Shown here one piece after another: positions 15,971 to 41,440 of a stretch of 64,000 bases of DNA. The notes below the pieces were generated by a model, which saw nothing but the letters and a program-made list of their open reading frames with translations, ran no database searches and was not told where the DNA came from. Every line of letters begins with the position of its first letter. Position 1 is the stretch's first letter. The position numbers and the translations under genes are program-made. This DNA is from Thermodesulfobacteriota bacterium. GTDB taxonomy: Bacteria; Desulfobacterota; Binatia; Bin18. Where the stretch lies: positions 2,688,001-2,752,000 of the forward strand of contig OZ219926.1 of NCBI GenBank assembly GCA_964291405.2, read 5' to 3'.

Positions 15971-16024
15971 AAAGAGGAAACGTGCCCTCCAATCATTCAC
16001 AAAAGCTGGACATGTTTCCTCTTT
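15971..16024 (+). repeat. 54-bp palindromic element copy A (intergenic, abuts upstream stop codon)
   Basis: AAAGAGGAAACGTGCCC-TCCAATCATTCACAAAAGCT-GGACATGTTTCCTCTTT. Confidence 0.95.
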
Positions 16025-16050
16025 GCGGCGAGGAAAAGAAAGTGACGACT

Positions 16051-17076
16051 ATGCAGGCGATGTTATTGCTTGGCCCAGGGAAGATTGCCTGTCAGGAATT
16101 GCCCGTACCGGAACCGGGCCCCGAAGATGTCGTGCTGAAGGTTGAGTCTGCCTTGACCTGCGGAACGGACCTCAAGGCCTTTTTGCGTGGCCATCCCAAG
16201 ATGCCCCCGCCGATCCGTTTTGGCCATGAATACTCCGGAACGATTACCGCGTGCGGGTCGCAGGTCACAAATTTCCGTGAGGGCGACGACATCATGCTTG
16301 CGCCAACCGGCCCGTGCGGTCGCTGTTTTTATTGCCGGCGTGACCAGGAAAACCTGTGTACGTCACTTATGACGACCATGGCATTTGGCGGTTATGCGGA
16401 ATATGTCAGCCTTCCCGGTCGGATTGTCAGATCCAATATGTTCTCCAAACCAAAAAGCCTGCCTTTTGTCGAAGCCGCGCTGTTGGAGCCGGTGTCGTGT
16501 GTAGTCTTTGGATTACAGCAGGTGACGTTCACGCCCGACGACACGGTGGTGATTATTGGCGCGGGTGGCTTTGGACTGTTGCACCTCATCCTCTTAAAGA
16601 TGTTTGGTCTGGAGCGAGTCTATATGGTAGCGCGGAACCCGGACCGGGCCAGAGTTGCGGGCGAACTTGGTGCCTACCGCGTGATTGCCCGTCCGGCTGA
16701 GGAGGCCCGGGAGGAAGTCTTGGAGGCCACAGGGGGCCGGGGGGCAGACCTGGTCATTGAGTGTACGGCCCAGCCGAGCGTTTGGGAGGAATCTCTGTTC
16801 TTTGCCCGTCCCGGCGGCCAGGTCGTTCTCTTTGGCGGCTGCCCGCAGGGAACCAAGGTTTCTTTGGACGCGACTCGGCTGCACTACGATCAGATTCGTC
16901 TGTCGAGCCCCTTTCACTTTAACCCGGCCGCTGTGCGGAAAGCGTCCGAATTGCTCATATCCGGGCAGATTCCAACCGAGTACCTGATTAGTGGTCGCTA
17001 CCCCCTGATTGACCTCTGCCAGGCGTTTGATCGTATGCAGCGTGGCGAGGGGATCAAATACGAAGTCGTACCCTGA
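16051..17076 (+). CDS. Zinc-dependent alcohol dehydrogenase (MDR family)
   Basis: CGTD, GHE, CGRCFYC...C, GAGGFG; start at ATG 16051 or GTG 16042. Confidence 0.92.
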   Translation: MQAMLLLGPGKIACQELPVPEPGPEDVVLKVESALTCGTDLKAFLRGHPKMPPPIRFGHEYSGTITACGSQVTNFREGDDIMLAPTGPCGRCFYCRRDQENLCTSLMTTMAFGGYAEYVSLPGRIVRSNMFSKPKSLPFVEAALLEPVSCVVFGLQQVTFTPDDTVVIIGAGGFGLLHLILLKMFGLERVYMVARNPDRARVAGELGAYRVIARPAEEAREEVLEATGGRGADLVIECTAQPSVWEESLFFARPGGQVVLFGGCPQGTKVSLDATRLHYDQIRLSSPFHFNPAAVRKASELLISGQIPTEYLISGRYPLIDLCQAFDRMQRGEGIKYEVVP

Positions 17077-17091
17077 GGGTGAAAGGCTGCC

Positions 17092-18336
17092 ATGAAGATT
17101 GTTACCCCGAACGAAGCCGTACGAGCTATCCCCGACGGCAGCATTGCGATCTTCCCCCACAGCTGTGTCGAACCGACGACCTTCTATACGGCTTTCCAGC
17201 ACGAGGTCGAGCGCTTCAGCAACCTGACCGTGTATTCCGGGCTGGCGTTTGGAAAATATCCCTTTCTGGAAAAGGGATTGGGGACGAATTTTCGCTATGT
17301 GACCTGGCAGGCTGCGCCCCAGCTCCGGCGTTTGTTCAAAGAAAACGACCCGCGCAAGGTCGGCTTTGCCCCCATGCGGTTTAGCGAGATCACTCGTATC
17401 GTGAACAAGAACGGGATCATCAAGCCGGATGTCGTTGTGGCCCAAGTTTCGCCGCCCGACCAGGACGGAACGGTCAGTTTGGGGATTTCGGTCAGTATCT
17501 ATCAAGACTTTATCGATAGCGCGAAAATGGTGATCGCTGAGATGAATACCAATATGCCGGCAACGCACGGCCAGAGCCGGGTGCCGGTTGAGAAAATCGA
17601 TTTTGCCATAGAGTCTGCCGAACCCCTTGGAACCTATCGCTCGCCCCACCAAAGCGAGCGCGACGCCAAAATCGTTGACTATGTTCTCGACCTGGTTCCT
17701 GACCTGGCCTGGGTGCAACTCGGGATAGGTTCCGTCCCCGACGCGGTTCTGGGTCGATTGGCAGACAAACGAGGGGTAAACCTCTACTCGGGCATGTTGT
17801 CACAGGGGTTGATCCAGTTTCTTGATCAGGTGAAACACACCCCCAAGATTATCACCGGCGAGCTTGCCGGTGACCAGGAGTTCTTTGACTTTTGCGGTCG
17901 TAACTCGCTCGTAGAAATGGCGACCGTCGATGTCACCCACAATATTCTGGAGTTGGCAAAGCTGCCGCGTTTCGTCTCCATCAATTCCGCCGTAGAGATT
18001 GACCTGCACGGCCAGAGCAATGGCGAGACCATTGGGCCGGTGCAGATTAGCGGTGTCGGCGGCAGCCTCGACTATGTGGAAGCCGCGGCGCTGGCCGAGG
18101 ACGGTGTGTCCATCATTGCATTGCCGTCAACGACTGAAGACGGCAAGCGCTCCAAGATCGTCGCCGGCCTGGCCACCGGCGCCGTTGTCACCACGCCCCG
18201 CTTCTGTACCGACTATATCGTGACCGAATACGGCATTGCCCGCATGAAGGGCAAAGACCTCCGCGGGAGGGCCGAAGCCCTCATCCAAATCGCCCACCCG
18301 GATTTTCGGCCTGAATTGGAGAAGCGTTTGGACTAG
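17092..18336 (+). CDS. Acetyl-CoA hydrolase/4-hydroxybutyrate CoA-transferase family
   Basis: QLGIGSVP, SINSAVEIDLHGQ, SGVGG, VTEYGIA, IAHPDFR. Confidence 0.9.
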   Translation: MKIVTPNEAVRAIPDGSIAIFPHSCVEPTTFYTAFQHEVERFSNLTVYSGLAFGKYPFLEKGLGTNFRYVTWQAAPQLRRLFKENDPRKVGFAPMRFSEITRIVNKNGIIKPDVVVAQVSPPDQDGTVSLGISVSIYQDFIDSAKMVIAEMNTNMPATHGQSRVPVEKIDFAIESAEPLGTYRSPHQSERDAKIVDYVLDLVPDLAWVQLGIGSVPDAVLGRLADKRGVNLYSGMLSQGLIQFLDQVKHTPKIITGELAGDQEFFDFCGRNSLVEMATVDVTHNILELAKLPRFVSINSAVEIDLHGQSNGETIGPVQISGVGGSLDYVEAAALAEDGVSIIALPSTTEDGKRSKIVAGLATGAVVTTPRFCTDYIVTEYGIARMKGKDLRGRAEALIQIAHPDFRPELEKRLD

Positions 18337-18436
18337 GAAATGTTCTGTTTACCGGCGTGAGTTATGTGAATTGTAGGAGCGCACTATCAGCCCTCTAGGG
18401 AGAGGATGTCAGTCTGAATTGAGCACTCTGAACTTG

Positions 18437-18892
18437 CTATGAGAACTGACTTCGTGAGTCAGACTCAGATGTTTCCTTCTCTCGCAAAAGAAACATGCTT
18501 ACTATTGCGGCAAGTCCGGACACACCAAACAGTCCACTCAGCCATGGATATCCTTTCACAATTGCCAGACACGCAACTCCCATAATGACGAGAATCGAAG
18601 TGAGCGCGAACCATTGACCCCGCTTATACAGTTCCACTGTGCGGGTATCCATCTCATGTTCGTGTTCCAAGTCTTGTTGTTCGAGGCTCTGATCATGGGC
18701 GGTCTGGCGTTCCCAGAGACTTAACATCCGCTCAAATGATCCAGGAAGAACTGCCTCGTACTGAGCGATGTGCTCTGGGATTGGTAAGGGGCTGCTCCAG
18801 GTCTCAGCGTACGCTTCGTCATCCGGGGCAGGGGCAGGCTCTAGCTCACCAGCGACCGGCTGTGCCTCCATAGGAGGCTTTTCGTCAGCCAT
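18437..18892 (-). CDS. DUF2335-like membrane protein
   Basis: SPLP.PE....YE.VLPGSFER...E....H followed by two C-terminal TM helices. Confidence 0.75.
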   Translation of the reverse strand: MADEKPPMEAQPVAGELEPAPAPDDEAYAETWSSPLPIPEHIAQYEAVLPGSFERMLSLWERQTAHDQSLEQQDLEHEHEMDTRTVELYKRGQWFALTSILVIMGVACLAIVKGYPWLSGLFGVSGLAAIVSMFLLREKETSESDSRSQFS

Positions 18893-19331
18893 GTGACACG
18901 ACGGGGACGCTCCTGTTCGCTAATTGACGTAGCTTTCGGACGCGGACACGGAGCTTTTGGCGGAGTTCTGTGGTCCCGTTTTCTTAACGTACGCGATCCG
19001 GGGAGTGATCTGAAAGGTTTTTACTATAGTATCTACCGTAGAACGTGGGCGAGAGAGGCTTGTCATGGCATGTGGGCGGCAACGTTTCGCCACGGGTGCC
19101 ATAACGACGCCTTGTTCCTAACCCTGTCATGATCCTGCTGAGATTGGCCAGTTGGCAACGTGCGGATAGCCACACCCCTCCTATAATGCCACGGGCACAG
19201 AGGGTCAAGACAGGTCAAGAAAAGAAATTCAAAACGAGCCTTCCCCTCGCGCCTTTTTTCTCTCCGACCTGTTTGATACGCTCGGTCCTTCGCTGGCGCT
19301 ATATGCATCTTTTCTGCGTGAGGGGGCGATT

Positions 19332-22778: not shown

Positions 22779-22799
22779 CGAATGGAAAGAGTAACCGCC

Positions 22800-25520
22800 A
22801 TGACAGGGAACGAGATACGCGACAGCTTCCTGCAATTCTTTGCCGACCGGGGTCATCAGATTGTCCCGAGTGCGTCTTTGATTCCAGCCAATGATCCGAC
22901 GCTGCTGTTCACCAATGCCGGGATGGTGCCGTTCAAGAATATTTTTCTCGGGGTCGAACGGCCGACCCACCGGCGTGTGGTCGATTCCCAAAAATGTTTG
23001 CGCGTCTCCGGGAAGCATAACGATCTGGAAGAAGTGGGTCGCGATACCTACCACCACACCTTCTTTGAGATGCTGGGGAACTGGTCGTTTGGCGATTACT
23101 ACAAAAAGGAAGCTATCCGCTGGGCTTGGGAATTGCTGACCGAGGTCTGGAAACTTCCCAAGCCGAAACTCTGGGCAACGGTGTATACGACAGACGACGA
23201 GGCGGACGAGTGGTGGCGGACCCAAACCGATATCAATCCGCAACAGATTTTGCGTTTTGCTGAAAAGGACAATTTCTGGGAAATGGGCGAGACCGGCCCC
23301 TGCGGACCGTGCTCGGAAATCCATATTGACCGCGGTCCGCAGGCTTGCGAGTTAGCTAATACACCGGGCCATAGCTGCGCGGTCAACGGTGGCTGTCCAC
23401 GCTATATTGAGTTATGGAATCTGGTGTTCATACAGTACAACCGCAATGCGGATCGATCCCTGGACGATCTGCCCGAGACGCATGTTGATACGGGTATGGG
23501 CTTGGAGCGCATTGTCTCCGTTCTCCAGGACGTGCCGGGCAATTACGACTCCGACCTGCTGCGCGACATCATTACCTTTACCGAGGAGTTAGGCGAAAAG
23601 CAGAAACGTGTCCTCCAATCATCCGCAAAAGCTGGACACGTTTCTGCTTTCAAGCGCTACGGCGAGACGAGTGAACAGGATGTGTCGTTTCGGGTGATTG
23701 CCGACCATGCACGTACGGCGGCCTTTGCCATTGCCGATGGCGTGGTCCCGACCAACGAGGGGCGAGGCTATGTGTTACGGCGGATTATGCGCCGCGCCTT
23801 GCGCCACGGGCGACTCCTTGGCTTTGAGGGGCCATTTTTCTCCCAGGTCGCCGGAAGCGTGACACAACTCCTGGGCTCGGCCTACTCCGAGCTGGTTGAG
23901 CGACGAGACTATCTGACCGAGGTCATACACAACGAGGAGACCCGTTTCTCGGAAACCCTGGACAAGGGCCTGGCCCTGCTCGAGCAAGAAATCCACGATT
24001 TGCGTCAGCGCAACGCTACAACCCTGTCCGGCGAAACCGCCTTTCGGTTGTATGATACCTACGGCTTCCCGCTGGATATGACCGAGGATTTTCTGTCGTC
24101 CGAAGGTTTCAGCGTTGACCACGATGAATTTCAGGCAGCCCTGGAAGAACAGCGTGCCCGTGCGCGTGGGGGGCAAAAGTTTGCTTCCGTCTCCGTTTCT
24201 GACACCATTGGCCCGCCCACTGACACTATAAGTGCTGAAACTGTAAGGACCGATTTTGTTGGTGATCGCCAGACTGAACACGAATCCGAGGTACGCATGC
24301 TGCTGGTGGACGGACAGCCCCGAACAGACGTGGTACGCGAAGGGGAAGAAGTCGATCTAATCGTTGCCGAGACGCCTTTTTATGGCGAGTCCGGGGGACA
24401 GGTCGGGGATACGGGGACGATACGAACGAGCCGTGGCGATCTCATCGAGGTGTTGGATACGCTTAAACCGCAGCCTTCGCTTATTGTGCATAAGGGCCGG
24501 GTGGTGCAGGGCGCGATGCAGACCGGGGATGCTGTGCATCTCAGTATTGACACTCCACGGCGCGAAGCCATTCGTTTGAACCATTCCGCAACACATATCA
24601 TGCATTCCGCGCTACGCGAGATTTTAGGCTCCCACGTGCGGCAGGCCGGTTCCCTGGTCACCCCGGATCGACTCCGTTTCGACTTTACACATACCAGTCC
24701 GGTCAAGGACGATGTCCTGGACGAAATCGAAAACCTGGTGAACCACCATATTCGGGAAAATGCCGCGGTGACGAGTGAGGAGATGTCCTTTACCGACGCG
24801 ATACAAAAAGGGGCCTTGGCCTTCTTTGGCGAGAAATACGGCGAGATCGTTCGGGTGTTACGGATGGGAGATTTCTCAACCGAGCTGTGCGGCGGAACCC
24901 ACGTGAGTCGGACCGGGGACGTGGGGTTGTTCAAATTCAGAGCGGAGACGGGCGTGGCGTCCGGTATCCGGCGGGTTGAGGCGGTCACAGGCGAGGGTGC
25001 TCTCAACTGGGTGCGTCAACGCGAGCACGTGCTCAAGGACATGGGCAGTATCCTGAAAGGCTCTGAGGAGGATGCGCTTGAGCGCTTGGAAAAATTGCTG
25101 AGTCGGCAACACGAGCTTGAAAAACAACTTGACCAGCTTCAGAGCCAAATCGCCGGCTCACAAAGCGACGATCTTGCTTCCCACATCCGTCAGACCAATG
25201 GGGTCAATGTGATCGCCAGTCGGGTCGAGGGCGTGGATCAGAAAGCCCTCCGGGAGATGGCGGATACGCTACGCGACAAACACCATCCCGCGGTCGTCGT
25301 TCTCGGAGCAACGAATGGGGCGAAAGTGTCGCTTCTCGCCGCGGTGAGTAAGGATTTGGTGCCGCAATATCACGCCGGAAAGATTATCAAAGAGATCGCC
25401 CCGCTGGTTGGCGGCGGTGGAGGCGGGCGGCCCGATTTCGCCCAGGCCGGAGGAAAAGATCCCAAACGCCTGGATGAAGCCCTCCAAAAGGTGTATGAGC
25501 TGATTGAAAAAGGCGCATAA
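22800..25520 (+). CDS. alaS: Alanine--tRNA ligase (contains in-frame 54-bp element)
   Basis: DPTLLFTNAGM, HHTFFEMLGNWSFGDY, NHSATH, ELCGGTH, GGGGGGRPDFAQAGG. Confidence 0.99.
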   Translation: MTGNEIRDSFLQFFADRGHQIVPSASLIPANDPTLLFTNAGMVPFKNIFLGVERPTHRRVVDSQKCLRVSGKHNDLEEVGRDTYHHTFFEMLGNWSFGDYYKKEAIRWAWELLTEVWKLPKPKLWATVYTTDDEADEWWRTQTDINPQQILRFAEKDNFWEMGETGPCGPCSEIHIDRGPQACELANTPGHSCAVNGGCPRYIELWNLVFIQYNRNADRSLDDLPETHVDTGMGLERIVSVLQDVPGNYDSDLLRDIITFTEELGEKQKRVLQSSAKAGHVSAFKRYGETSEQDVSFRVIADHARTAAFAIADGVVPTNEGRGYVLRRIMRRALRHGRLLGFEGPFFSQVAGSVTQLLGSAYSELVERRDYLTEVIHNEETRFSETLDKGLALLEQEIHDLRQRNATTLSGETAFRLYDTYGFPLDMTEDFLSSEGFSVDHDEFQAALEEQRARARGGQKFASVSVSDTIGPPTDTISAETVRTDFVGDRQTEHESEVRMLLVDGQPRTDVVREGEEVDLIVAETPFYGESGGQVGDTGTIRTSRGDLIEVLDTLKPQPSLIVHKGRVVQGAMQTGDAVHLSIDTPRREAIRLNHSATHIMHSALREILGSHVRQAGSLVTPDRLRFDFTHTSPVKDDVLDEIENLVNHHIRENAAVTSEEMSFTDAIQKGALAFFGEKYGEIVRVLRMGDFSTELCGGTHVSRTGDVGLFKFRAETGVASGIRRVEAVTGEGALNWVRQREHVLKDMGSILKGSEEDALERLEKLLSRQHELEKQLDQLQSQIAGSQSDDLASHIRQTNGVNVIASRVEGVDQKALREMADTLRDKHHPAVVVLGATNGAKVSLLAAVSKDLVPQYHAGKIIKEIAPLVGGGGGGRPDFAQAGGKDPKRLDEALQKVYELIEKGA
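23597..23650 (+). repeat. 54-bp palindromic element copy B, in-frame in alaS
   Basis: AAAGCAGAAACGTGTCC-TCCAATCATCCGCAAAAGCT-GGACACGTTTCTGCTTT; perfect 17-bp arms; reads KQKRVLQSSAKAGHVSAF. Confidence 0.97.
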
Positions 25521-28504: not shown

Positions 28505-28588
28505 GAAAGATACCGGATTCCGGCTTATGCTGGAATAATGAGAAAGCCGGTGCGGCCCTTCCAGGCTGGGAGAGTCCGGCTGGGCTGC
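28505..28588 (+). repeat. Direct repeat copy 1 flanking the toxin-antitoxin module
   Basis: GAAAGATACCGGATTCCGGCTTATGCTGGAAT...GTGCGGCCCTTCCAGGCTGGGAGAGTCCGGCTGGGCTGC, similar to 29406-29486. Confidence 0.85.
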
Positions 28589-28689
28589 TGTTTCCACTCT
28601 TGTCGAGCAGTCAGAGTTTCGCTGACTCCCAAGGCTCGAACTGACCGCGAGTCGTGGCAGAGCAGGGGGCTTCCATCTATTCCCGGAAC

Positions 28690-29405: not shown

Positions 29406-29486
29406 GAAAGATACAGGATTCCGACTTCTGCTGGAATGGAGGGATCAGTGCGGCCTTTCCAGGCTGGGAGAGTCAGGCTAGGCTGC
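29406..29486 (+). repeat. Direct repeat copy 2 flanking the toxin-antitoxin module
   Basis: GAAAGATACAGGATTCCGACTTCTGCTGGAAT...GTGCGGCCTTTCCAGGCTGGGAGAGTCAGGCTAGGCTGC. Confidence 0.85.
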
Positions 29487-29493
29487 GGTCTGT

Positions 29494-31125
29494 ATGCAGC
29501 GTTTGTGGCCTGTTCTACTCGCCGGCGTAAGTGGTGTTGTGCTTGCCCTGGCCTTTCCGAAAGTCGATTGGAATATTCTGGCCTGGGTGGCTTTTATCCC
29601 GCTGCTCTGGATGACACAGGGGCAGACGTTACGCCGTGCTTTCAGCCTTGGCTGGATTGCCGGGATGGGGTTTTATCTCTGTACGCTGTATTGGGTCGTC
29701 GATACGATTGGCCTGTACAGCAATATCCCGCATATTATTGCCGTTGGTCCGCTGCTCCTGATGTGTGCCATTCTATCGGCATACACCGGTGTCTTTGCTG
29801 CCGGCCTGTGTGTCTGTCACAAGAGTCGGCCGCGCAACAGCGGTTGGTTGCTTCTCGTGTTTGGTCCCATGCTCTGGGTCGCCCTGGAGTGGGTCCGCTC
29901 GTTCTTTTTTATCGGGTTTCCCTGGGTCAGCCTAGGCTATTCCCAATACCACTTTGTAAACCTGATTCAGTTTGTCGAATACACTGGTGTCTACGGACTG
30001 TCGGCGCTGGTGATCTTTGGCAATGTCGCTCTCTTTATCGCCTTTTCCCGTCAGAACCGTGGGCGCCTGGTGCTGGTTCTGCTCCTGGTTATCACGGGAC
30101 TTTGGGGCTGGGGAAACTGGCGTCGTAGCCAGTTGGCGGCTCTGCCCCCGGTCCACACGCTGCACGTTGGGATCGCCCAGGGGAATATCGCCCAGGATCA
30201 AAAATGGGATCCTGATTACCAAGAGGTCACTCTCGCCCGCTATGAGCAACTCACGCGCCAGATAACAGAACAAGCAGTTGACCTGGTTATTTGGCCAGAG
30301 GCGGCAGTGCCATTTTTCTTTCAGTCTGATGTGACCTATCGTGGCCGGCTGCTGGACTTGGCCCAAGACACCAACACGCCCATCCTGTTTGGCAGTCCGG
30401 CCTTCCGAGTCGATGAGACGGAACTCACGCTATTCAACCGGGCCTATCTCCTGTCTCCGGACACGACGATTCTGGGGCATTATGACAAGATGATCCTTAC
30501 CCCCTTTGGCGAATATATCCCCTTCCAAGACAGTGTACTCTTCTTTCTGGATAAATTGGTGGAAGGGATAGGCGACTTTGCGCCAGGGACGACGCCGACC
30601 GTTTTTTCTCTTCCTCTAAAGAGTCAACCTGCCCTCCACCCCGATGATAAAGCTAGGGGCGTTGAGGCTTTTAAGACTTTTGGTGTGCTCGTCTGCTATG
30701 AGGGTGTGTTCCCTGACCTCGCGCGCCGCTTCGTTCATAATGGCGCGCAACTGCTGATCAACGTGACCAATGATGCCTGGTTCGGAGAGACTTCGGCTCC
30801 CTATCAACATCTGGCCATGGAGGCCATGCGGGCCGTCGAGAATCGAGTGCCCATGGTGCGGTCCGCGAATACCGGGATTTCAGCTATTGTGAATATCGAT
30901 GGCCAGATTCAGACCCAAACAGCACTCCTGGAGACCACCTTTATTGCCGACCAGATTACCTGGCCCCACGTGACTTCTTTCTATACCCGGTACGGCGACT
31001 GGTTTGTGACGTTGTGCGTCGTCGGGACGCTCGTTATGTTAGGTTATACAGGGATAATTGTAGTATTCGTCAAGCGAACTGGAGGAGGCGGAGATGCTGG
31101 CAGAAATCAGAGAAAAATTACATGA
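29494..31125 (+). CDS. lnt: Apolipoprotein N-acyltransferase (contains degenerate in-frame 54-bp element)
   Basis: Multiple TMs, GFPW..LGYSQ, QGNI, WPE, YDK..L.PFGEYIP, CYE, NDAWFG, RSANTGIS. Confidence 0.96.
   Translation: MQRLWPVLLAGVSGVVLALAFPKVDWNILAWVAFIPLLWMTQGQTLRRAFSLGWIAGMGFYLCTLYWVVDTIGLYSNIPHIIAVGPLLLMCAILSAYTGVFAAGLCVCHKSRPRNSGWLLLVFGPMLWVALEWVRSFFFIGFPWVSLGYSQYHFVNLIQFVEYTGVYGLSALVIFGNVALFIAFSRQNRGRLVLVLLLVITGLWGWGNWRRSQLAALPPVHTLHVGIAQGNIAQDQKWDPDYQEVTLARYEQLTRQITEQAVDLVIWPEAAVPFFFQSDVTYRGRLLDLAQDTNTPILFGSPAFRVDETELTLFNRAYLLSPDTTILGHYDKMILTPFGEYIPFQDSVLFFLDKLVEGIGDFAPGTTPTVFSLPLKSQPALHPDDKARGVEAFKTFGVLVCYEGVFPDLARRFVHNGAQLLINVTNDAWFGETSAPYQHLAMEAMRAVENRVPMVRSANTGISAIVNIDGQIQTQTALLETTFIADQITWPHVTSFYTRYGDWFVTLCVVGTLVMLGYTGIIVVFVKRTGGGGDAGRNQRKIT
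30618..30671 (+). repeat. 54-bp palindromic element copy C (diverged), in-frame in lnt
   Basis: AAAGAGTCAACCTGCCC-TCCACCCCGATGATAAAGCT-AGGGGCGTTGAGGCTTT; reads KSQPALHPDDKARGVEAF. Confidence 0.8.
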
Positions 31126-32288: not shown

Positions 32289-32342
32289 AAAGAGGAAACG
32301 TGTCCACCAATCAGGCACAGAGGCTGGATACGTTTCCTCTTT
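32289..32342 (+). repeat. 54-bp palindromic element copy D (between prfB and PAC2 gene)
   Basis: AAAGAGGAAACGTGTCC-ACCAATCAGGCACAGAGGCT-GGATACGTTTCCTCTTT. Confidence 0.95.
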
Positions 32343-32388: not shown

Positions 32389-33306
32389 ATGAACGCATTG
32401 ACAATTGAACGAATTCCGGAACTGAACGACCCCGTCCTGATTGTCGCCTTTGCCGGCTGGAACGATGCCGGCAGTGCGGCGACGCATGCCACGCAATTTC
32501 TTATCAAACGACTCCAGGCCCAGCGTTTCGCGACGATCGACCCTGAAGAATTTTATAATTTCAGTGAGGTCCGGCCCCACGTGCGCCTGCGAGATGGCCT
32601 CTACCGCGAGATTCGCTGGCCGGCCAATGAATTCTTTGCGACTAGCGCAGAGCAGCTCAAGCGCAGCATGGTCCTGGGTCAGGGCATTGAACCGCATCTC
32701 CGCTGGAAGGCGTATTCAGCGGCCTGTCTGGATGTTGCCAAGCAGTGTGGGGTGCGCCTCGTGATTACCCTGGGTGCGCTCTTGGCCGATGTGGCCTACT
32801 CCAGGCCGGTACGCGTGGTCGGATTTAGCAGCGACCCCGATATTGCGACCCAACTCCAACTCACCCCGTCCCGCTACGAGGGGCCAACCGGCATCGTCGG
32901 GGTGTTGAACGATGCCTGCCGACAGGCTGGATTGACGTCCATCAGTTTCTGGGCCAACGTGCCGCACTATATTTCCGCTTCTCCAAACCCAAAGGCCGCC
33001 CTGGCTCTCGTCAGCCGTCTTGAGTCCTTTCTCCACTTCGCCCTGGATACCACCGAGTTGGTGACGGGCGCGGCGGAGTTTGACGCACAGGTTGCAAAGG
33101 CGATTGCCGAGAATCCCAACTTGGCCGCCTATGTCAAACGCCTGGAAGAACAGGAGCAGGAAGAGGGGCTGGAAACGGAGACCGCTGCGCAGGACAAAGC
33201 CGGCAACGGACACGGCAACGGCAACGGGCATGCCAACGGCAAGGATATGGCTGAAGAACTCCAGCGTTTCTTGCAGCAGCGTAAGGATCGTAAAGATGAC
33301 GAGTGA
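32389..33306 (+). CDS. PAC2 (proteasome assembly chaperone-like) family protein
   Basis: AFAGWNDAG.AAT, IDPEEFYNF...RP, EPHLRW, LGALLADV..SRP, YEGPTGIVGVL, WANVPHY. Confidence 0.85.
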   Translation: MNALTIERIPELNDPVLIVAFAGWNDAGSAATHATQFLIKRLQAQRFATIDPEEFYNFSEVRPHVRLRDGLYREIRWPANEFFATSAEQLKRSMVLGQGIEPHLRWKAYSAACLDVAKQCGVRLVITLGALLADVAYSRPVRVVGFSSDPDIATQLQLTPSRYEGPTGIVGVLNDACRQAGLTSISFWANVPHYISASPNPKAALALVSRLESFLHFALDTTELVTGAAEFDAQVAKAIAENPNLAAYVKRLEEQEQEEGLETETAAQDKAGNGHGNGNGHANGKDMAEELQRFLQQRKDRKDDE

Positions 33307-34810
33307 GGCCCGGCCCGACCCGGATAAGTCCGTGTATATGGTGAATCTGGGTTGCCCTAAAAATCTCGTGGATGGCGAGGTCATGCTCGGCCTGCTGGCG
33401 GATGCAGGCTATACGCTGAGCCTCGACCCGGAACAGGCCGGGGTCCTGATGGTCAATACGTGCAGCTTTATCGACGAGGCCAAGGAAGAGTCGATTGAGA
33501 CGATCTTGGACTTGGCGACCTATAAGACGACGAAGACAAAGAGGAAACGCGCCCTCCAATCAGACAAAAAAGCCGGACACGTTTCCTCTTTCGAGAAACA
33601 GCTCATTGTGACCGGCTGTTTAGCCCAGCGCTACGGTCAGGAGCTGCGCGAACTTCTCCCTGAAGTTGACGTTTTTGTGGGAACGGGAGAGTTTCTTCGG
33701 ATCACCGAGATATTGGAACAAAGGCGGCGCGCGCTTGAAAAGAGGGAACGTGTCCTCCAATCATCCAAAAAAGCTGGACACGTTCCCTCTTTTGGTCCTA
33801 CCATGTATCTGGGGGCCTCTCACGTCCTGCCGGATCATACCGTTCCGCGTATCCCGACTACCCATTTTTACTCCGCCTATCTCAAGGTCGCCGAAGGTTG
33901 CAACCACAAATGCGCCTTTTGTATTATTCCGAAAATTCGCGGCTTACAGGAAAGTCGGCCGATTGCTTCTCTCGTGGCCGAAGCTACCGGACTGGTCGCA
34001 CAAGGGGTGAGAGAAATTAATCTCATTGCGCAAGACCTGACCGCTTACGGGCGAGAGCGCCGTGATGGGACGACCCTGCTGGCCCTGCTCAAATCCCTCG
34101 TGCGCGTTAAGGGTCTGGACTGGATTCGGCTGCTGTACTGCTATCCGAATTATCTCGACGAAGCCCTGTTAGGTTTCATTGCCGCAGAAGAAAAAGTATG
34201 CCCGTATATTGATATGCCGCTCCAGCATATCAGCGACCGGATGTTGAGGCGGATGAAGCGGGAGAAAAGCGGGGACGGCATTCGCCGCGTGTTGGACCGG
34301 ATTCGGGCCGCTATTCCCAATGTGATTATACGCTCGTCTTTTATTGTTGGCTTTCCCGGTGAGCGAGAGGACGATTTTCAGCAGCTGTGCGATTTCGTAA
34401 CCGAGGCGGAGCTCGATCACGTAGGGGTGTTTCGCTATTCCCAGGAGGAAGGGACAGCTGCTGGTACAATGGCCGACCAGATCAGCGAAGAGATCAAAGA
34501 AGACCGCTGGCACAAATTGATGGCCTGCCAGGCCGAAGTCGTGCGTAAAAAAAATAGCGCGCTGGTGGGTGAGGAACGATCGATACTCGTCTGTGGTCAG
34601 GACGATCACGGCCGCTGGTGGGGGCGGACGCAGGGCCAGGCTCCGGATATCGATGGCATCGTCTTCCTGGAACAGTGTCCGGCTGACAGCGGCGACATGG
34701 TCCGTGCCCGGATTACCGGGGCGTCCGGTTATGACCTGCAAGCGCGCTGTCTTCCCGAGCAGCCGTTTCAAACATCCACAGCTCTTGACTTGGCAGCCGC
34801 TTCTCCCTAA
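33296..34810 (+). CDS. rimO: Ribosomal protein S12 methylthiotransferase (contains two in-frame 54-bp elements)
   Basis: LGCPKNLVD, NTCSFI, GCLAQRY, CNHKCAFC radical SAM motif, QAPDIDG TRAM region. Confidence 0.96.
   Translation: MTSEARPDPDKSVYMVNLGCPKNLVDGEVMLGLLADAGYTLSLDPEQAGVLMVNTCSFIDEAKEESIETILDLATYKTTKTKRKRALQSDKKAGHVSSFEKQLIVTGCLAQRYGQELRELLPEVDVFVGTGEFLRITEILEQRRRALEKRERVLQSSKKAGHVPSFGPTMYLGASHVLPDHTVPRIPTTHFYSAYLKVAEGCNHKCAFCIIPKIRGLQESRPIASLVAEATGLVAQGVREINLIAQDLTAYGRERRDGTTLLALLKSLVRVKGLDWIRLLYCYPNYLDEALLGFIAAEEKVCPYIDMPLQHISDRMLRRMKREKSGDGIRRVLDRIRAAIPNVIIRSSFIVGFPGEREDDFQQLCDFVTEAELDHVGVFRYSQEEGTAAGTMADQISEEIKEDRWHKLMACQAEVVRKKNSALVGEERSILVCGQDDHGRWWGRTQGQAPDIDGIVFLEQCPADSGDMVRARITGASGYDLQARCLPEQPFQTSTALDLAAASP
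33538..33591 (+). repeat. 54-bp palindromic element copy E, in-frame in rimO
   Basis: AAAGAGGAAACGCGCCC-TCCAATCAGACAAAAAAGCC-GGACACGTTTCCTCTTT; reads KRKRALQSDKKAGHVSSF. Confidence 0.97.
33739..33792 (+). repeat. 54-bp palindromic element copy F, in-frame in rimO
   Basis: AAAGAGGGAACGTGTCC-TCCAATCATCCAAAAAAGCT-GGACACGTTCCCTCTTT; perfect arms; reads KRERVLQSSKKAGHVPSF. Confidence 0.97.
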
Positions 34811-34843: not shown

Positions 34844-34897
34844 AAAGAGTCAAGATGTCCTCCACGCATCCAAATAAAGCTGGACACGTTTACCCTT
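34844..34897 (+). repeat. 54-bp palindromic element copy G (degenerate; upstream of dksA RBS)
   Basis: AAAGAGTCAAGATGTCC-TCCACGCATCCAAATAAAGCT-GGACACGTTACCCTTT. Confidence 0.88.
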
Positions 34898-34910
34898 TGG
34901 AGAAGGCGTC

Positions 34911-37215: not shown

Positions 37216-37282
37216 GACTGTATATCCGGACAGTACGAGGATGGAGTGGAAAAGATTGAGGTCCATGTCCGAAGAAGTCTGC

Positions 37283-38320
37283 ATGGCTGTCTACACTGTC
37301 CTTGACCGCAAAGCCGTTAATCGTCTCGTCAAAGACTATGGATTAGGGCGTTTGTCAACCGCTCAGGGTATCTCTGCCGGATCGGTGAACACTCATTATT
37401 GCCTTGAGGCTGCGAAGGGAAAATTCGTTCTGCGAATTGATGAGGTCAAAGACACGAGCGACGCGCAGCGTGAAATCGACTTTCTGCTCTTCTTGCGTAA
37501 ACGTGGCTTTCCGTGCCCACGGCCGGTGGCCGACAAAAACGGTTCCTATCTCCAGGAATACGAAAAGAAGGCGGTCTCTATCTATCGTCATCTGGCCGGC
37601 AAAGACTTCTCGGCCGCAACGCTCACCAATGACCACATAGAAAAGATTGGACAGACCCTGGCCCGGCTCCATCTCATTGGCCAGGAATATGATACCCCGA
37701 TCAGAAACCGGTTTGCTTTTGACCGTGTACGCAGTATTTATCAAAACCTGCGCGGCCGTATTGCGGTCCATCTGAAGCATATCGGCCACGTCCTGGATGA
37801 TGAAATCGCCCATCAGGAAGAATATCGGGAAGAAAAGCTGCCAAAAGGCATGATCCACGGCGACCTCTTTCCTGATAACGTCCTGTTTCGTGGTGGGAGA
37901 GTCGTTGGTGTGCTCGACTTTGAAGCGGCCTGTTTTGGCAAATTCATTGCCGACCTGGCAACTGCCGTAAACGCCATGTGCTATTACGAGGAGCGCTACC
38001 ATATTGGTCGATTCAACGCCCTCCTTGACGGTTATCAGTCCGAGCGTACGCTTTCGCTAGCCGAGTGGGACGCCTTTCCGAATGAGCTCCGTTTTTCCGC
38101 CTTCCGCTTTACTCTGACTCGTCTGCGTGATTTTTTCTTTCGCCACATGGATGAAAAACGACGGGTGAATAAGGATTATCGGGAATTCTTTCACCGTCTC
38201 AGAATCCTCCGCCGGGAGCGGAGCGGTGGGATGGACCAAATGCTCCTCACGATGGCAACGGGCTATGATTACCGCAAGTATCAAAAGATCCACGCTGAGG
38301 AAAAAGGCGTGAACGCCTAA
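37283..38320 (+). CDS. thrB: Homoserine kinase type II (APH-fold)
   Basis: MAVYT.L, G..NT.Y, LARLH, IHGDLFPDNVLF, LDF. Confidence 0.85.
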   Translation: MAVYTVLDRKAVNRLVKDYGLGRLSTAQGISAGSVNTHYCLEAAKGKFVLRIDEVKDTSDAQREIDFLLFLRKRGFPCPRPVADKNGSYLQEYEKKAVSIYRHLAGKDFSAATLTNDHIEKIGQTLARLHLIGQEYDTPIRNRFAFDRVRSIYQNLRGRIAVHLKHIGHVLDDEIAHQEEYREEKLPKGMIHGDLFPDNVLFRGGRVVGVLDFEAACFGKFIADLATAVNAMCYYEERYHIGRFNALLDGYQSERTLSLAEWDAFPNELRFSAFRFTLTRLRDFFFRHMDEKRRVNKDYREFFHRLRILRRERSGGMDQMLLTMATGYDYRKYQKIHAEEKGVNA

Positions 38321-38370
38321 GTCCGGTACCCCCTGCGCCCTGACAACATTGCGGAGACATCCAGACCACT

Positions 38371-39867
38371 GTGTTTTCAAAGATACTCATTGCAAACCGA
38401 GGTGAGATCGCCACTCGTATCGCTCGGACCTGTCGTGAAATGGGTATCGCAACAGTGGCCGTGTACTCAGAGGCTGACCGTTCTTCACCCCATCTGTATG
38501 TGGCGGACGAGGCCGTGTGTGTGGGGCCGGCTCAGGCCAGCGAGAGTTATCTCAACGTGGAGTCCATGCTGGCCGCGGCCCGCCAGACCAGGGTGAACGC
38601 GATCCATCCTGGATATGGATTTTTATCGGAGAATGCGACATTTGCTCGGGCCGTAGCTGATGCCGGCCTGACCTTTATCGGCCCTGCTCCGGATGCCCTG
38701 TCTGCGGTTGGAAACAAGATTGTTGCGCGCCGGACAGTGGCTCAACTCGGTGTTCCGGTGATTCCTGCGCTTGAAGACCCGGCGACCGACCCCAAGACGG
38801 TGCGTGAGCAAGTCGCAGCACTCGGCTACCCCCTCTTGATTAAAGCGGCTGCGGGTGGTGGCGGTAAAGGAATGCGCATTGTGCGCGAGGAAGCCGAGTT
38901 GGTTGAGGCCTTGTCTGCGGCGCAGCGCGAAGCCGAAGCGGCCTTTGCCGAAGGGACGGTCTATGTTGAGCGTTTTCTCGAACGTCCCCACCATGTGGAA
39001 GTCCAGATTCTTGGTGACACTGCCGGGAATATCGTCCATCTTGGCGAACGGGAATGCTCCATTCAGCGCCGCTATCAGAAAATAGTCGAAGAGACTCCCT
39101 CACCCGCCGTATCCGAGTCCCTGCGGCAGGAGATGACCAAGGCCGCGCTTACCGTGGCCAGAGCCGCCGGCTATGACAATGCCGGAACCGTCGAATTCAT
39201 CCTCGACAACGACGGGAAATTCTATTTTCTTGAAGTCAACGCTCGCCTCCAGGTTGAGCATCCGATTACCGAGTGGATTACCGGTCTGGATCTGGTGCAA
39301 GAACAAATCCGGATTGCCGCCGGGGAAGCGCTGGGTTTCCAGCAAGATGACATCCGCCGGAACGGCCACGCCCTTGAGTGCCGTTTATATGCCGAAGATG
39401 CCGCCCACGGGTTCCTGCCGTCGCCCGGACATGTCTTGGCCTGGCATGCGCCCCAGGGACCGGGGGTACGGGTTGATTCCGGAGTCGAGTCGCAGACCGA
39501 AGTCCCGATATACTATGATCCCATGATTGCCAAGATTTCGACTTGGGGAGCGGACCGTGAACAAGCCCGCAGACGCATGGCCGGGGCGCTTCGTCAAACG
39601 GCGGTTCTGGGCCTCACGACCAACCTGCCTTTTTTAATTGAGCTCATGGACCATCCTGCCTTTGCCGCTGGCGATACCCACACCGGCTTTCTGTCCGAGT
39701 ATTTTCCGAACTGGCAACCCGGCGATCAGCCGCATACGCTTGCGGCTGCTCTGGCCGCCAGTCTGCACCGTGGTCCATATCGAAACGGTGATGGATCGAC
39801 CTCTTTACCCTCGCAGGACTCCTCGACTCCATGGCGACAGCTTGGCGGCTGGCGCCTCGGCTCCTGA
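38371..39867 (+). CDS. Acyl-CoA carboxylase, biotin carboxylase subunit
   Basis: KILIANRGEIA, HPGYGFLSEN, GGGGKGMR, ERECSIQRR, RLQVEHP, YYDPMIAK. Confidence 0.95.
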   Translation: MFSKILIANRGEIATRIARTCREMGIATVAVYSEADRSSPHLYVADEAVCVGPAQASESYLNVESMLAAARQTRVNAIHPGYGFLSENATFARAVADAGLTFIGPAPDALSAVGNKIVARRTVAQLGVPVIPALEDPATDPKTVREQVAALGYPLLIKAAAGGGGKGMRIVREEAELVEALSAAQREAEAAFAEGTVYVERFLERPHHVEVQILGDTAGNIVHLGERECSIQRRYQKIVEETPSPAVSESLRQEMTKAALTVARAAGYDNAGTVEFILDNDGKFYFLEVNARLQVEHPITEWITGLDLVQEQIRIAAGEALGFQQDDIRRNGHALECRLYAEDAAHGFLPSPGHVLAWHAPQGPGVRVDSGVESQTEVPIYYDPMIAKISTWGADREQARRRMAGALRQTAVLGLTTNLPFLIELMDHPAFAAGDTHTGFLSEYFPNWQPGDQPHTLAAALAASLHRGPYRNGDGSTSLPSQDSSTPWRQLGGWRLGS

Positions 39868-39885
39868 TACCCGAATTATTCCGAA

Positions 39886-40407
39886 ATGAAGACCTTACTC
39901 TATGTCGCGGGTGAAGAACTGGCGCTGGAATATAACCAACACGGCGAGAGCGACGACCTGTACGAGCTTGTCTGGAACGGCCAGACTCAGCAACCGGCAC
40001 ATGTGGTCACTATTCGGGATGGTACGATCACCTTCCTCGTTGACGGTCATCCTCTTCATGCCCATGTGGTCCGGGATGGTGACCGCAGCCTGATATCCAT
40101 CGAGGGGCGGACCTACGAATTCAATCACACTCCCCCTAAGGACGCCCGAGCCCGCCAGCGGGGGACGAGGGGGAGCTTTGAACCTGAGATCCGCTCCCCC
40201 ATGCCAGGGAAAATTCTCGCCGTCAAAGTCGTCGAAGGCGAGGTTGTCGAAGACGGCCAAACCCTCGTGCTTCTCGAAGCGATGAAAATGGAGAATGCGC
40301 TGACTGCCGAGGGGAATGCCCGTGTAGCTACCATCCATGTGGCCGACGGAGACCTCGTCGAACTTGGTCAGGTTCTGGTCGAGCTTGAGCCAATCGAAGC
40401 AGAGTAG
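39886..40407 (+). CDS. Biotin carboxyl carrier (biotin/lipoyl domain) protein
   Basis: SPMPGKI...LEAMKMEN. Confidence 0.92.
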   Translation: MKTLLYVAGEELALEYNQHGESDDLYELVWNGQTQQPAHVVTIRDGTITFLVDGHPLHAHVVRDGDRSLISIEGRTYEFNHTPPKDARARQRGTRGSFEPEIRSPMPGKILAVKVVEGEVVEDGQTLVLLEAMKMENALTAEGNARVATIHVADGDLVELGQVLVELEPIEAE

Positions 40408-40427
40408 ACAGCCCAGTGGAGGTGCCC

Positions 40428-41342
40428 TCAGCCGAGCTGGGAACCCACCTGAAGCCCAATATGCCCAGCGAGCTCGTCAGCGGCGATTTTGCCCCGCTCA
40501 CCGCGGAGCTTTTTGGCGACGACGGTGCCACCGTTCAGGGCAATGCTGACAGTCCCATCCCCAAGGGCGAGCACTTGTCCCGGTGTTGCTGATCCGCTAG
40601 ACGGCTCCAGGCGACAGTCATACAGGCGGATTTTCTGTCCGCGCCATAGTGTCGATGCGCCGGGCTGTGGGTCGCACCCGCGGATATGGTCAAAGACGGC
40701 TTGCGCTGGCTGAGACCAGTCAATGCCAGAATGTTCATCCCGACACAACGGATCGTAATTGGCCTGGGATTCGTCTTGGACAATGCGCGGCGGACTACCG
40801 GCTTGAATCAGATCGATCGCCTCACCAGCGGCCTCAATACCGAGCGGGAAGAGTTTGTTGAAGTACAGGGTTCCGGTTGTCTCTTCTGGGCCAATTTCGA
40901 CTTCTTTTTGCACCAGTATCGGACCGGTATCAATACCCTCGTCTACCCAGAACCAGGAGATACCGGTCTTTTTCTCACCATTGATCAGGGTCCAGTTAAT
41001 CGCACTCCCACCACGATACTTGGGTAAGAGTGACGGGTGAAAACAGATGCTACCGAGTTTGGGCGCGTTGAACACTGGAGGCGGAACGATTTGGGTCACG
41101 AAGGCCAATACGGCGAGATCCGCGTCGAGCTCTTGAAATTTCCCCAAGACCTCAGGACTCTTCATGGAGCGGTGTTGATAAACGGGAATATCGAGTTCCC
41201 CTGCCCGCTTCTTGACAGGATCAAACTTTCCTTCGACTCTGTCCGGGGGGCAAAACACCGCCAGGATATCCTGGCCCTTATCCCGGAGCTTATCGAGCGT
41301 TTTTTCCGCAAACGCGGCTTGACCAATGAGAATGATACGCAT
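40428..41342 (-). CDS. Methionyl-tRNA formyltransferase-like formyltransferase
   Basis: HPSLLPKYRGGSAINW, DEGIDTG, IRGCDPQPGA. Confidence 0.85.
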   Translation of the reverse strand: MRIILIGQAAFAEKTLDKLRDKGQDILAVFCPPDRVEGKFDPVKKRAGELDIPVYQHRSMKSPEVLGKFQELDADLAVLAFVTQIVPPPVFNAPKLGSICFHPSLLPKYRGGSAINWTLINGEKKTGISWFWVDEGIDTGPILVQKEVEIGPEETTGTLYFNKLFPLGIEAAGEAIDLIQAGSPPRIVQDESQANYDPLCRDEHSGIDWSQPAQAVFDHIRGCDPQPGASTLWRGQKIRLYDCRLEPSSGSATPGQVLALGDGTVSIALNGGTVVAKKLRGERGKIAADELAGHIGLQVGSQLG

Positions 41343-41384
41343 ATGGGTTCTCCTTTCCGTACGTCCGTTCGACAGTCTGTTGGC

Positions 41385-41440
41385 AAAGAGTAAACGTGTC
41401 CAGCTTTTTTTTGTCTGGCTGGAGGATACGTTTACTCTTT
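41385..41440 (-). repeat. Palindromic element copy H (56 bp, minus strand, intergenic)
   Basis: Minus strand AAAGAGTAAACGTATCC-TCCAGCCAGACAAAAAAAAGCT-GGACACGTTTACTCTTT. Confidence 0.95.

Follow-up and report, generated by a model that had tools for sequence, protein, structure and literature searches.

A 54-bp palindrome recurs eight times in a 64-kb window (the whole stretch of DNA analyzed here) of a Candidatus Binatia genome, four times between genes and four times in frame inside conserved genes, which raises the question of whether it is a mobile element, a hairpin that is useful to its host or a part of the proteins themselves. We consider that it is probably a non-autonomous, selfish mobile hairpin, representing a new REP/RPE-like family found essentially in one genus of Candidatus Binatia.

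Structure and copies of the hairpin

The unit of 54 bp consists of two perfect 17-bp arms with a 20-nt loop between them. One arm reads AAAGAG(T/G)AAACGTGTCC and the other is its complement, with AAAGAG...CTCTTT as the ends of the element (152 copies), and the element carries its own TAA at positions 7 to 9. The consensus drawn by an earlier reading of the sequence alone (the sequence-only reading) fits the copies of the window, although genome-wide the commoner arm is AAAGAGTAAACGTGTCC, with T at arm position 7 in 52 of 84 54-mers. All eight copies that it had listed could be read in place, two of them slightly longer than the unit (55 nt at 34844 and 56 nt at 41385). Its division of the copies also held, as Pfam confirmed the host ORFs of the four in-gene copies (AlaS, Lnt, and RimO twice) and the other four (15971, 32289, 34844, and 41385) were placed between genes. 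The copies are as follows.

15971..16024, plus strand: 54-bp hairpin copy directly after the TGA of ORF 15410-15970, with a zinc alcohol dehydrogenase gene downstream; profile score 51.4
23597..23650, plus strand: in-frame copy in alaS (22782-25520), class II catalytic domain; encodes EKQKRVLQSSAKAGHVSAF
30618..30671, plus strand: old, decayed in-frame copy in lnt (29494-31125); missed by the profile and no longer folding
32289..32342, plus strand: intergenic copy upstream of a PAC2-family gene with a likely start at 32389
33538..33591, plus strand: in-frame copy at RimO site 1, inside the UPF0004 domain; encodes TKRKRALQSDKKAGHVSSF
33739..33792, plus strand: in-frame copy at RimO site 2, in the UPF0004/radical SAM linker; encodes EKRERVLQSSKKAGHVPSF
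34844..34898, plus strand: 55-bp intergenic copy between rimO and dksA, left arm partly degraded; score 30.3
41385..41440, minus strand: 56-bp intergenic copy with reversed loop, between fmt and the formylglutamate amidohydrolase gene (both minus strand)

At up to 3 mismatches, the 17-nt arm has 13 matches in the window against 0.17 expected from shuffles, paired at 15971, 23597, 32289, 33538, 33739, and 41385 and single at 34882. Seven of the eight copies are clear hairpins of 54 to 56 bp, and the profile search likewise finds seven at an E value of <0.01, missing the lnt copy at 30618, whose fold is no better than that of shuffles (z of -0.85). The element hairpins fold with very high stability (RNA fold of -26 to -34 kcal/mol; z against shuffles, -5 to -8), and the 41385 copy gives -25.6 to -30.5 kcal/mol with a z of -5.7 to -8.2. 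Compensatory changes maintain the stem, with 94.6% of its cells paired across copies (slid controls, 36 to 57%) and 37 cells changed on both sides versus 11.4 in shuffles, a value that none of 500 shuffles attained. Beside the first copy, the ADH domains of ORF 15898-17076 start at residue 74 (Pfam).

The profile search places about 157 element loci in the genome. Many more copies had been predicted genome-wide, and they exist, but at about 157 and not at the ~600 expected from the density of the window, which is a zone of high copy density. Genes were predicted with a crude codon-usage caller, which left 128 of the 157 copies outside genes and placed 29 inside; counts near gene starts are uncertain with this caller, with 12 of these 29 lying within 45 nt of a predicted start. 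About 14 of the 157 can be regarded as securely in genes, against ~89% of the DNA being predicted as coding. Insertion into genes in frame, as first described for the window, is therefore a minority outcome, although a consistent one, with all 14 robust copies keeping the reading frame in hosts confirmed by Pfam, which include AlaS, RimO, MnmG, MnmE, Mfd, and UvrA-like and AddB-like proteins. The basic peptide ascribed to the element is encoded by 7 of the 14 and represents one of the four reading phases seen.

Of 27 other genomes in the genus, 20 carry the element, whereas two complete genomes of that genus (G012 and G016) have no copy. No copy was detected in 9 further genera of the family or among 24 genomes from other families, and a class-wide sample gave 11 of 14 genomes of the genus, 1 of 3 of a sister genus (2 matches), and 0 of 132 in 18 other families, so that the element is confined essentially to one genus of Candidatus Binatia. 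The public runs containing the window sequence are labeled as sponge or marine metagenomes. The element matched no Rfam family, with sub-threshold hairpin matches only, and a full-text literature search found no published description of it, in keeping with the earlier suggestion that it was possibly undescribed. What is new is the family and not the kind, which is already known from Rickettsia palindromic elements (RPEs), intragenic ERIC, and other MITEs as described in PMC10969869.

Filled, empty, and flipped alleles

Both RimO sites have exact 54-bp filled and empty alleles among orthologues without target-site duplication; the empty allele of site 2 reads CTTGA followed directly by TGGTCC in five relatives (L005, L009, L014, L016, and L035), and site 1 holds an AAATTT remnant in three (L006, L007, and L010). 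Exact alleles without duplication were also found at four intergenic sites. When 108 copies of relatives were checked in this genome, 71 were filled, 28 empty, 4 other, and 5 unplaced, and 13 distinct places with a copy in relatives have an exact empty site here, again with no duplication. At the protein level, the 18-residue AlaS insert, judged from match lengths, is present in 5 of 14 genomes of the genus (G000 included) and in 0 of 25 of other genera, while protein alignment shows the 18-residue Lnt insert in all 18 close relatives and its absence in six more distant ones (L017, L035, L021, L022, L024, and L034). The 32289 locus has one or two copies in relatives, and most relatives are filled at the place orthologous to 34844. 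Comparison with orthologues, proposed earlier as a check, thus yields empty sites not only for many intergenic copies but also for AlaS, Lnt, and the two RimO sites. The exact 54-bp presence and absence at the RimO and intergenic sites, with which the AlaS and Lnt inserts agree, shows that the element is mobile and that its copies were inserted rather than inherited as protein loops, and the notion of a selfish hairpin spreading through the genome agrees with the 157 loci and with the filled and empty alleles among orthologues.

The lack of target-site duplication reported for the window extends to the whole family, as filled/empty pairs are exact and direct repeats of 4 bp flank 1 of 152 copies, with none longer. 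Flank preference is weak and symmetric: among 152 copies, 88 have G at -5 and 76 have C at +5, and these counts give no fixed left target sequence. The aligned alleles show that the element enters as an exact block, without target-site duplication or a strict target sequence. Its loss, shown by the same kind of comparison, appears to be either precise or by symmetric internal deletion, and a 22-nt mini-palindrome remnant elsewhere indicates that such deletions occur at other depths too. RimO site 2 requires five changes on the locus tree (copies masked), most simply explained by a single gain and by exact losses in each of L005, L009, L014, and L016, four separate events, but homologous recombination among lineages could also account for these recurrent precise losses. 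Orthologous copies of G023 and G018, and of G027 and five others, have the loop in opposite orientations, which shows that it inverts in place. The divergence among copies indicates that they are not young, with a single identical pair (a local tandem) and differences at 2 to 13 of 54 positions between most nearest neighbors. It may be, therefore, that the family is largely fossil and that loss accounts for much of the polymorphism now seen.

Within genes, the RimO copies have deletions of 6, 12, and 21 nt, and the decayed copies in Lnt and in the RimO of L015 remain in frame. In the AlphaFold model of RimO the mean pLDDT is 84.8, with values of <50 confined to the two inserts and the termini. 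RNA-library contigs, which come from relatives at 88 to 97% identity and may contain DNA, span the RimO copies at site 1 (X16 record 11) and site 2 (X17 record 17), and one skips exactly the 54 nt of the 32289 copy. Most probably, the in-gene copies are transcribed and translated.

Movement of the element and alternative readings

For a selfish mobile hairpin, we propose that the hairpin itself would be what the mobilizing or excising machinery recognizes, this machinery being either a trans-acting enzyme or the host's own replication and repair processes working on the hairpin once it is extruded. Which insertions persist would then be decided by selection, leaving those in spacers, those in the last few codons of genes, where the TAA of the element would close the reading frame, and a few stop-free, 18-codon in-frame insertions in tolerant segments of the protein surface. 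Evidence for such a filter comes from the scarcity of copies in coding DNA and from the stop-codon positions described below. It is conceivable, if doubtful, that the mover is non-classical, either a host hairpin pathway at replication forks or a new enzyme family, with blunt integration preferring last codons plus stop, to which the element would contribute its TAA and a stable 3' hairpin. Insertion, exact excision, and flipping would in that case need no protein of its own, making the element a mobile "stop codon plus hairpin" cassette.

The position at gene ends also bears on a different and rather unlikely explanation, a host-useful 3'-end hairpin (mRNA stabilizer, terminator, or protein-binding site) whose benefit to the cell would maintain it and possibly spread it, the in-gene copies being accidental. 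Of the 128 intergenic copies, 42 overlap the upstream stop codon or lie directly next to it; 24 of them supply the TAA of the upstream ORF, and in the other 18 the stop lies at 0 to 2 nt of overlap. These insertions cluster in the last few codons, as the median distance from the element to the following in-frame stop is 3 codons versus 22 for random frames, and in one case the empty allele of G005 places the insertion 5 codons before the native stop. The conserved, highly stable stem would also suit a host function, as would the many old copies common to several species (the 71 of 108 above). However, there is no strand signal with respect to transcription (sense-strand mismatches, 68 G-U versus 74 A-C; 72 copies in the orientation of transcription and 42 in the opposite one), and the loop flips freely. 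Copies are neither enriched between convergent genes (10 versus ~20 expected from spacer length) nor depleted between divergent ones (28 versus ~34 expected), they are often lost without visible consequence, and complete genomes of the genus lack the element altogether.

A terminator scan flagged no element hairpin, because the 20-nt loop is above its limit and there is no real T-run; it lists 33557-33540 (minus strand), a small stem wholly within the left arm of one copy. An intrinsic or SPRITE-like mobile terminator, which would have a G+C-rich stem and a short loop before a T-run, was rejected on the loop, the missing T-run, and the lack of enrichment between convergent genes.

An unlikely alternative is a REP/REPIN family, in which a RAYT (HUH Y1) transposase moves the single-stranded hairpin, as in Pseudomonas and E. 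coli. The element is indeed palindromic, mostly extragenic, without target-site duplication, and precisely excised, G-T mismatches mildly exceed A-C on the loop-defined strand (121 versus 84), and the genome holds a RAYT-like Y1 gene. However, a search along this line, suggested by the sequence-only reading, turned out against it: that sole gene is broken into two ORFs, with a different palindrome (TGCGGGCTTCCAGCCCGCA) on its flanks, and Y1 presence does not follow the element across the 27 genomes of the genus, the PF01797 match being absent in 10 of the 20 with the element and present in four without it. The ends AAAG/CTTT are not the REP tags GTAG or CGTC, and with 54 bp and a 20-nt loop the element is larger than a REP of 20 to 40 bp, as REPs are defined in PMC3733652.

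Quite improbable is an ordinary MITE, that is, an internally deleted IS on whose terminal inverted repeats a DDE transposase acts, even though the element has the traits expected of one, being small, perfectly inverted at its ends, and present in many copies after a burst limited to one lineage. The AAATTT remnant at RimO site 1 resembles Tc1/IS630-type excision, which leaves footprints derived from the ends, but the 22-nt remnant tells of symmetric internal deletions at other depths as well. Target-site duplication is absent in ~20 filled/empty comparisons and in the 152 flanks, and 31 solo arm-like matches are scattered through the genome, where the arms bound no longer element and self-BLAST finds few repeats. 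The only IS of the genome is IS630-like, with unrelated ends and a CTAG target. No cognate transposase was found for the element, which counts against the mobile-hairpin reading itself: IS110 has no match, and from the single reverse transcriptase the nearest copy is 18 kb away. In other genomes, the search for a parent IS covered 10 gene-bracketing copy pairs, and the genes bracketed in this genome and its relatives (n = 19) are all housekeeping or without family.

Finally, ancestral lineage-specific loops with convergent DNA similarity, or an assembly artifact, can practically be discarded. The Lnt insert fixed in 18 of 18 close relatives would alone be compatible with such loops, but one and the same 54-bp sequence recurs in spacers and in proteins that are unrelated, orthologues within the genus have exact empty sites, and many independent assemblies, including single-contig genomes, as well as contigs of public runs contain the element.

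As a selfish mobile hairpin, the element would extend the RPE-type phenomenon, in which selfish palindromes write peptides into essential proteins, to an uncultured phylum-level lineage. Because individual copies differ among ~20 sequenced species of one genus, alleles that are filled, empty, partly deleted, or flipped can be compared as a natural series in AlaS, RimO, MnmG, MnmE, Mfd, and others. Such a series is of use for examining the tolerance of proteins to insertions and the gain and loss of perfect hairpins. For annotation, the copies explain odd 18-residue inserts, shortened C termini ending in KE, and misplaced start codons in these genomes.

Comparison with known repeats

IS200/IS605-derived palindrome-associated elements depend on DNA hairpins, are precisely excised, and make no target-site duplication, all of which is shared by the hairpin-based element described here. 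They insert 3' of a fixed tetra- or pentanucleotide and have two different subterminal hairpins, whereas the element is a single symmetric hairpin with no fixed left target and no co-occurrence with Y1.

REP/REPIN sequences are also extragenic palindromic hairpins with hundreds of copies, a conserved stem, and no target-site duplication. REPs near stop codons have reported effects, which the position of the element close behind stops recalls. A REP is an imperfect palindrome of 20 to 40 bp with a conserved GTAG or CGTC at one end, according to PMC3733652. The element has neither tag, lacks a cognate RAYT, and has a longer stem and loop, and its copies are mostly single hairpins rather than doublets, some of them tolerated in genes.

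In bacterial MITEs that fuse to ORFs, target-site duplications and a recognizable parent IS are the general rule, and neither was found for the element. Intragenic ERIC, BOX, QMITE1, and Anabaena MITEs and the terminator-like SPRITE, as described in PMC10969869, are likewise small, non-autonomous repeats and form in-frame fusions or occupy gene ends. The element differs from SPRITE in not being a canonical intrinsic terminator.

RPEs are a close parallel. PMC10969869 describes them as short, gene-less palindromic repeats that are dispersed within a single bacterial lineage and have entered unrelated housekeeping genes in frame time and again, so that these gain family-specific peptides where the fold tolerates them, and our analysis finds the same for the element. 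RPEs are ~150 bp long, in contrast to the single simple hairpin of 54 bp, and nearly half of the copies from three RPE families lie within genes (PMC10969869), compared with ~9% for the element. Their host is an obligate intracellular alphaproteobacterium and not a free-living or sponge-associated genus of Binatia, and the element is further set apart by the flipping of its loop and by the donation of stop codons at gene ends.

Copies of the element and their distribution

Reading the sequence bears out the eight copies of the 54-bp hairpin repeat (two 17-bp arms and a 20-nt loop) proposed for the window by the sequence-only reading, and the 17-nt arm given there has 13 window matches with at most three mismatches, compared with 0.17 expected from shuffles. 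The copies, by window position, are the following.

15971, 54 nt
23597, 54 nt, within alaS
30618, 54 nt, within lnt, degenerate
32289, 54 nt
33538-33591, 54 nt, within rimO (site 1)
33739-33792, 54 nt, within rimO (site 2)
34844, 55 nt
41385, 56 nt, loop reversed

Pfam matches show that the ORFs hosting copies encode AlaS, Lnt, and RimO; the genes nearby are named as PAC2, zinc ADH, DksA, Fmt, formylglutamate amidohydrolase, and RF-1. A profile made from the genome copies picks up seven of the eight and misses the one in lnt, whose fold has a z score of -0.85 against shuffles; for the good copies, folding energies run from -26 to -34 kcal/mol and z scores from -5 to -8.

Many more copies had been anticipated genome-wide if the window's density held, and there are many more. 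In the source genome (4.95 Mb, 57.8% G+C), nhmmer gave 301 strand-hits, or 157 loci after merging, every one on the main contig, C3, with the density peaking at 2.25 to 3.5 Mb. Both termini are present in 152 copies, 84 of which are exactly 54 nt long. The consensus arm is AAAGAGTAAACGTGTCC, and the G at arm position 7, the window form, is in the minority (30 versus 52 among the 84 54-mers). Among the loops, a major type, TCCAATAGACATGAGATGCT, and an A-rich type, TCCAATCAGACAAAAAAGCT, can be told apart, with numerous variants besides. The only identical copies are one local tandem pair, nearest neighbors are mostly 2 to 13 positions apart, and the copies are not very recent. Doublets with a spacing of about 100 nt, one pair of them identical, occur at C3:2091886/2091987 and C3:2837972/2838072 and in locus L002 at 2155/2243; upstream of the PAC2 gene, several relatives have a doublet and the window has a single copy.

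Among relatives, a covariance-model search, in which at most 94 candidates per genome were scored so that matches are not copy numbers, found the element in 20 of the 27 other genomes of the genus (two matches in G014). The remaining seven, including the complete genomes G012 and G016, gave none, and neither did nine further genera in the family or 24 genomes from different families. A class-wide sample gave 11/14 genomes within the genus, one of three genomes in one sister genus (two matches), and 0/132 genomes from 18 other families. A viral contig collection contained zero exact matches to the two-arm pattern. At the ends of the main contig, the opening 29.5 kb (C3:1-29551) repeats the final 35 kb (4860337-4895696) at 92 to 99.6% identity, probably because a circular overlap was left untrimmed in the assembly or because it contains strain variation, and C3:1-29551 carries no copy of the element.

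Insertion sites and reading frames

Empty sites, proposed as a check on the three protein hosts, were found for all of them. In protein and DNA alignments of 18 close relatives, both RimO sites are exact 54-bp presence/absence differences; at site 2, the empty allele CTTGA/TGGTCC corresponds to the filled allele CTTGA[54 bp]TGGTCC, with zero duplicated bases. The 18-residue insert of Lnt occurs throughout the 18 close relatives and is missing in six more distant ones, and by match lengths AlaS has its insert in 5 of 14 genus genomes, the source counted, and in none of the 25 matched genomes of other genera. Comparison of two 20-kb regions with five relatives yielded further exact filled/empty pairs, and for 108 copies of relatives, the state in the source genome is filled at 71, empty at 28, and otherwise different at 4, with 5 unplaced.

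The 13 distinct empty places in the source genome show neither a duplication nor a shared target sequence. Together with these exact alleles, the flank statistics, with zero direct repeats, rule out a target-site duplication, none of which had been apparent from the window. The flank preference is weak and symmetric (G at -5 in 88 and C at +5 in 76 of 152 copies), and A at -6 and T at +6 are almost absent. Both preferred bases occur together in 43 copies, compared with 44 expected, so they are independent, and a one-sided target motif is therefore rejected. Nine copies (C3 ~3669622, 4668937, 3498312, 3684699, 3343750, 967063, 51062, 38174, and 1001355) lie within another repeat, rich in G+C, with ...CCCCTCYTNGGAGGG on one side and GTGCCGCGNAGCGGCGGGGTGGGTT on the other; this repeat is also found without the hairpin and would be a preferred landing site or else a composite repeat.

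Genes were called with our own codon-usage caller (4,592 predicted, 89% of the contig), which is crude, above all for start codons, and places 128 of the 157 copies outside genes and 29 inside. Twelve of the latter are within 45 nt of a predicted start and three within 50 nt of a stop, which leaves 14 robust in-gene copies, all of which keep the reading frame. In-frame insertion into conserved proteins thus stands for these copies and does not describe the majority, which are outside genes. The robust hosts are AlaS, RimO (twice), MnmG, MnmE, Mfd, a double UvrA-like protein, an AddB-like nuclease, a histidine kinase, an APH-family kinase, a HEAT-repeat protein, an outer-membrane efflux protein, an FAD monooxygenase, and one weakly matched protein.

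The basic peptide that the element had been said to add to its hosts (K[R/S]KRVLQS.KKAGHVSSF) is the commonest outcome, in 7 of the 14; the other phases are RVNVSSN...DTF.L in four and the reverse orientation in three. As the basic-peptide phase is open in 71 of 152 copies, less than half, it seems to be favored in genes.

Of the intergenic copies, 42 of 128 overlap or abut the upstream stop: 24 supply it as TAA (element positions 7 to 9), 8 make up a TAA together with an adjacent T, 2 have a one-base overlap, and 8 start right after it. Where a copy overlaps the upstream stop (by 9, 2, or 1 nt) and has a length divisible by three, as 16 do, the next in-frame stop past the element comes at a median of 3 codons, compared with 22 for random frames, and an empty allele in the relative G005 places one such insertion 5 codons ahead of the native stop. 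Relative to spacer length, convergent-gene spacers are not enriched in copies and divergent ones are not depleted.

In its longest form, the rimO ORF shares 226 nt with the end of the PAC2 gene (window 33080-33306), and distant RimO orthologues align just from residue 82-83 of this long ORF; a start at 33296 is likely. Upstream of lnt are two 42-nt direct repeats (28550-28591 and 29448-29489), 90% identical and 898 nt apart.

Stem constraint, loss, and probable expression

The stem of the element is under constraint. Across 73 copies, 94.6% of the cells of the 17+1 bp helix are paired, compared with just 36 to 57% in control structures shifted by 1 to 3 columns, and both sides have changed in 37 cells, compared with 11.4 in shuffles (0/500 shuffles reach 37). 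The palindrome does not extend into the flanks, where positions pair below chance. The loop-defined strand has a mild mismatch asymmetry (121 G-T versus 84 A-C) that is absent relative to transcription (68 versus 74 on the sense strand); strand selection at the RNA level is rejected for lack of such a signal.

In a phylogeny of the 7.5-kb RimO locus, calculated with copies masked, site 2 requires five changes, for which the simplest reading is one old gain followed by four separate exact losses; the old single gain is supported by the shared G8/C47 variant and by the decayed copy in L015. Inter-lineage recombination could possibly have taken the place of the repeated losses. At site 1, three separate clades (L006, L007, and L010) retain 6 bp, AAATTT, as a remnant, and a 22-nt mini-palindrome, GAAGAGTAAACGTTTACTCTTT, at C3:2812971-2812992 is made up of the element's outer arms and lacks the inner stem and loop, so that symmetric collapse of the hairpin is recurrent. 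The loop is inverted between species at orthologous copies; its orientation is thus not stable, which accounts for its near-random orientation relative to gene direction. At one orthologous site (L099:16878, C3:2926115; G005 locus L171), the source genome and G005 share the rare outer-arm variant AATGAG/CTCATT and have inner stems and loops of different types, a mix that suggests conversion between copies or re-insertion at one site.

Partial deletions within the RimO copies measure 6, 12, and 21 nt, and decayed copies remain in frame, both of which argue for translation. RNA-library contigs from relatives, which may also contain DNA, cross site 2 (set X17, record 17) and site 1 (set X16, record 11); parts of the window that the RNA runs leave uncovered carry no information. 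Where contigs skip a copy, they match DNA alleles of relatives (L005-like and L011/L012-like), so nothing points to RNA excision, and these contigs are no evidence for splicing. An AlphaFold model of the 504-residue RimO (29-sequence alignment; mean pLDDT, 84.8; pTM, 0.85) is confident except at the termini and at residues 82-98 and 159-165, both of which lie within the two inserts. Public runs containing window 33300-34000 mostly carry sponge or marine metagenome labels, and RNA libraries account for six.

Candidate mobilizers and known repeat families

A search for a HUH/RAYT transposase flanked by the element, suggested by the sequence-only reading, found one Y1/RAYT-like gene, and it is flanked by a different palindrome. 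The two candidate systems in the source genome are the following.

L081 (C3:980603-983833), Y1/RAYT-like gene split into two ORFs (locus 1016-1423 and 1468-1800), flanking palindrome TGCGGGCTTCCAGCCCGCA
L163 (C3:1699288-1700711) and C3:4345077-4346100, IS630-family element (DDE_3), 1,024 bp, 100% identical, CTAG insertion

The Y1 gene and its palindrome look like a separate REP-RAYT system, and Y1 matches in 12 of the 27 other genus genomes do not correlate with the element. As mobilizer it is rejected, the gene being split, its palindrome foreign, and its presence not tracking the element. Self-BLAST of the source genome revealed very few repeats, and the only IS-like one seen, the IS630-like pair, is rejected as parent or mobilizer because its ends are unrelated to those of the element. 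No long element bounded by the arms was found in this genome, and the genes between copy pairs (9 here and 10 in six relatives) are all housekeeping or without family. A retron-like origin is rejected, as the sole reverse transcriptase is 18 kb from the nearest copy, and IS110 has no match in the genome. An integron attC site was set aside as unlikely, the copies being dispersed, inside essential genes, and apparently without core sites.

The copies do not have the features of a canonical terminator, and the element departs from REP/RAYT, DDE-type MITEs, IS200/IS605 derivatives, and terminator-like repeats in at least one defining feature tested for each. It fits a selfish, non-autonomous hairpin of the REP/RPE kind. 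As an exact 54-bp block that depends on its own stem, it goes into DNA with no duplication, flips, and is lost via hairpin-driven events; selection would then leave the copies that lie in spacers, at gene tails, or in one of a few protein segments that tolerate them.

Rfam gave zero matches for the whole window at gathering thresholds, and in E-value mode, window 33500-33830 returned nothing but sub-threshold plastid 3'-UTR hairpins and microRNA precursors. Literature searches on palindromes in Binatia and, more broadly, on such repeats gave an unrelated paper and general REP and MITE papers, with no description of the element among them, in agreement with the suggestion that the family may be undescribed. 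The type of phenomenon is already known; the element itself is without an Rfam family or a published description that we found. The closest behavioral match, as far as the review PMC10969869 describes them, is the Rickettsia palindromic elements, from which, by the same description, our element differs in its size, its host, and its share of in-gene copies.
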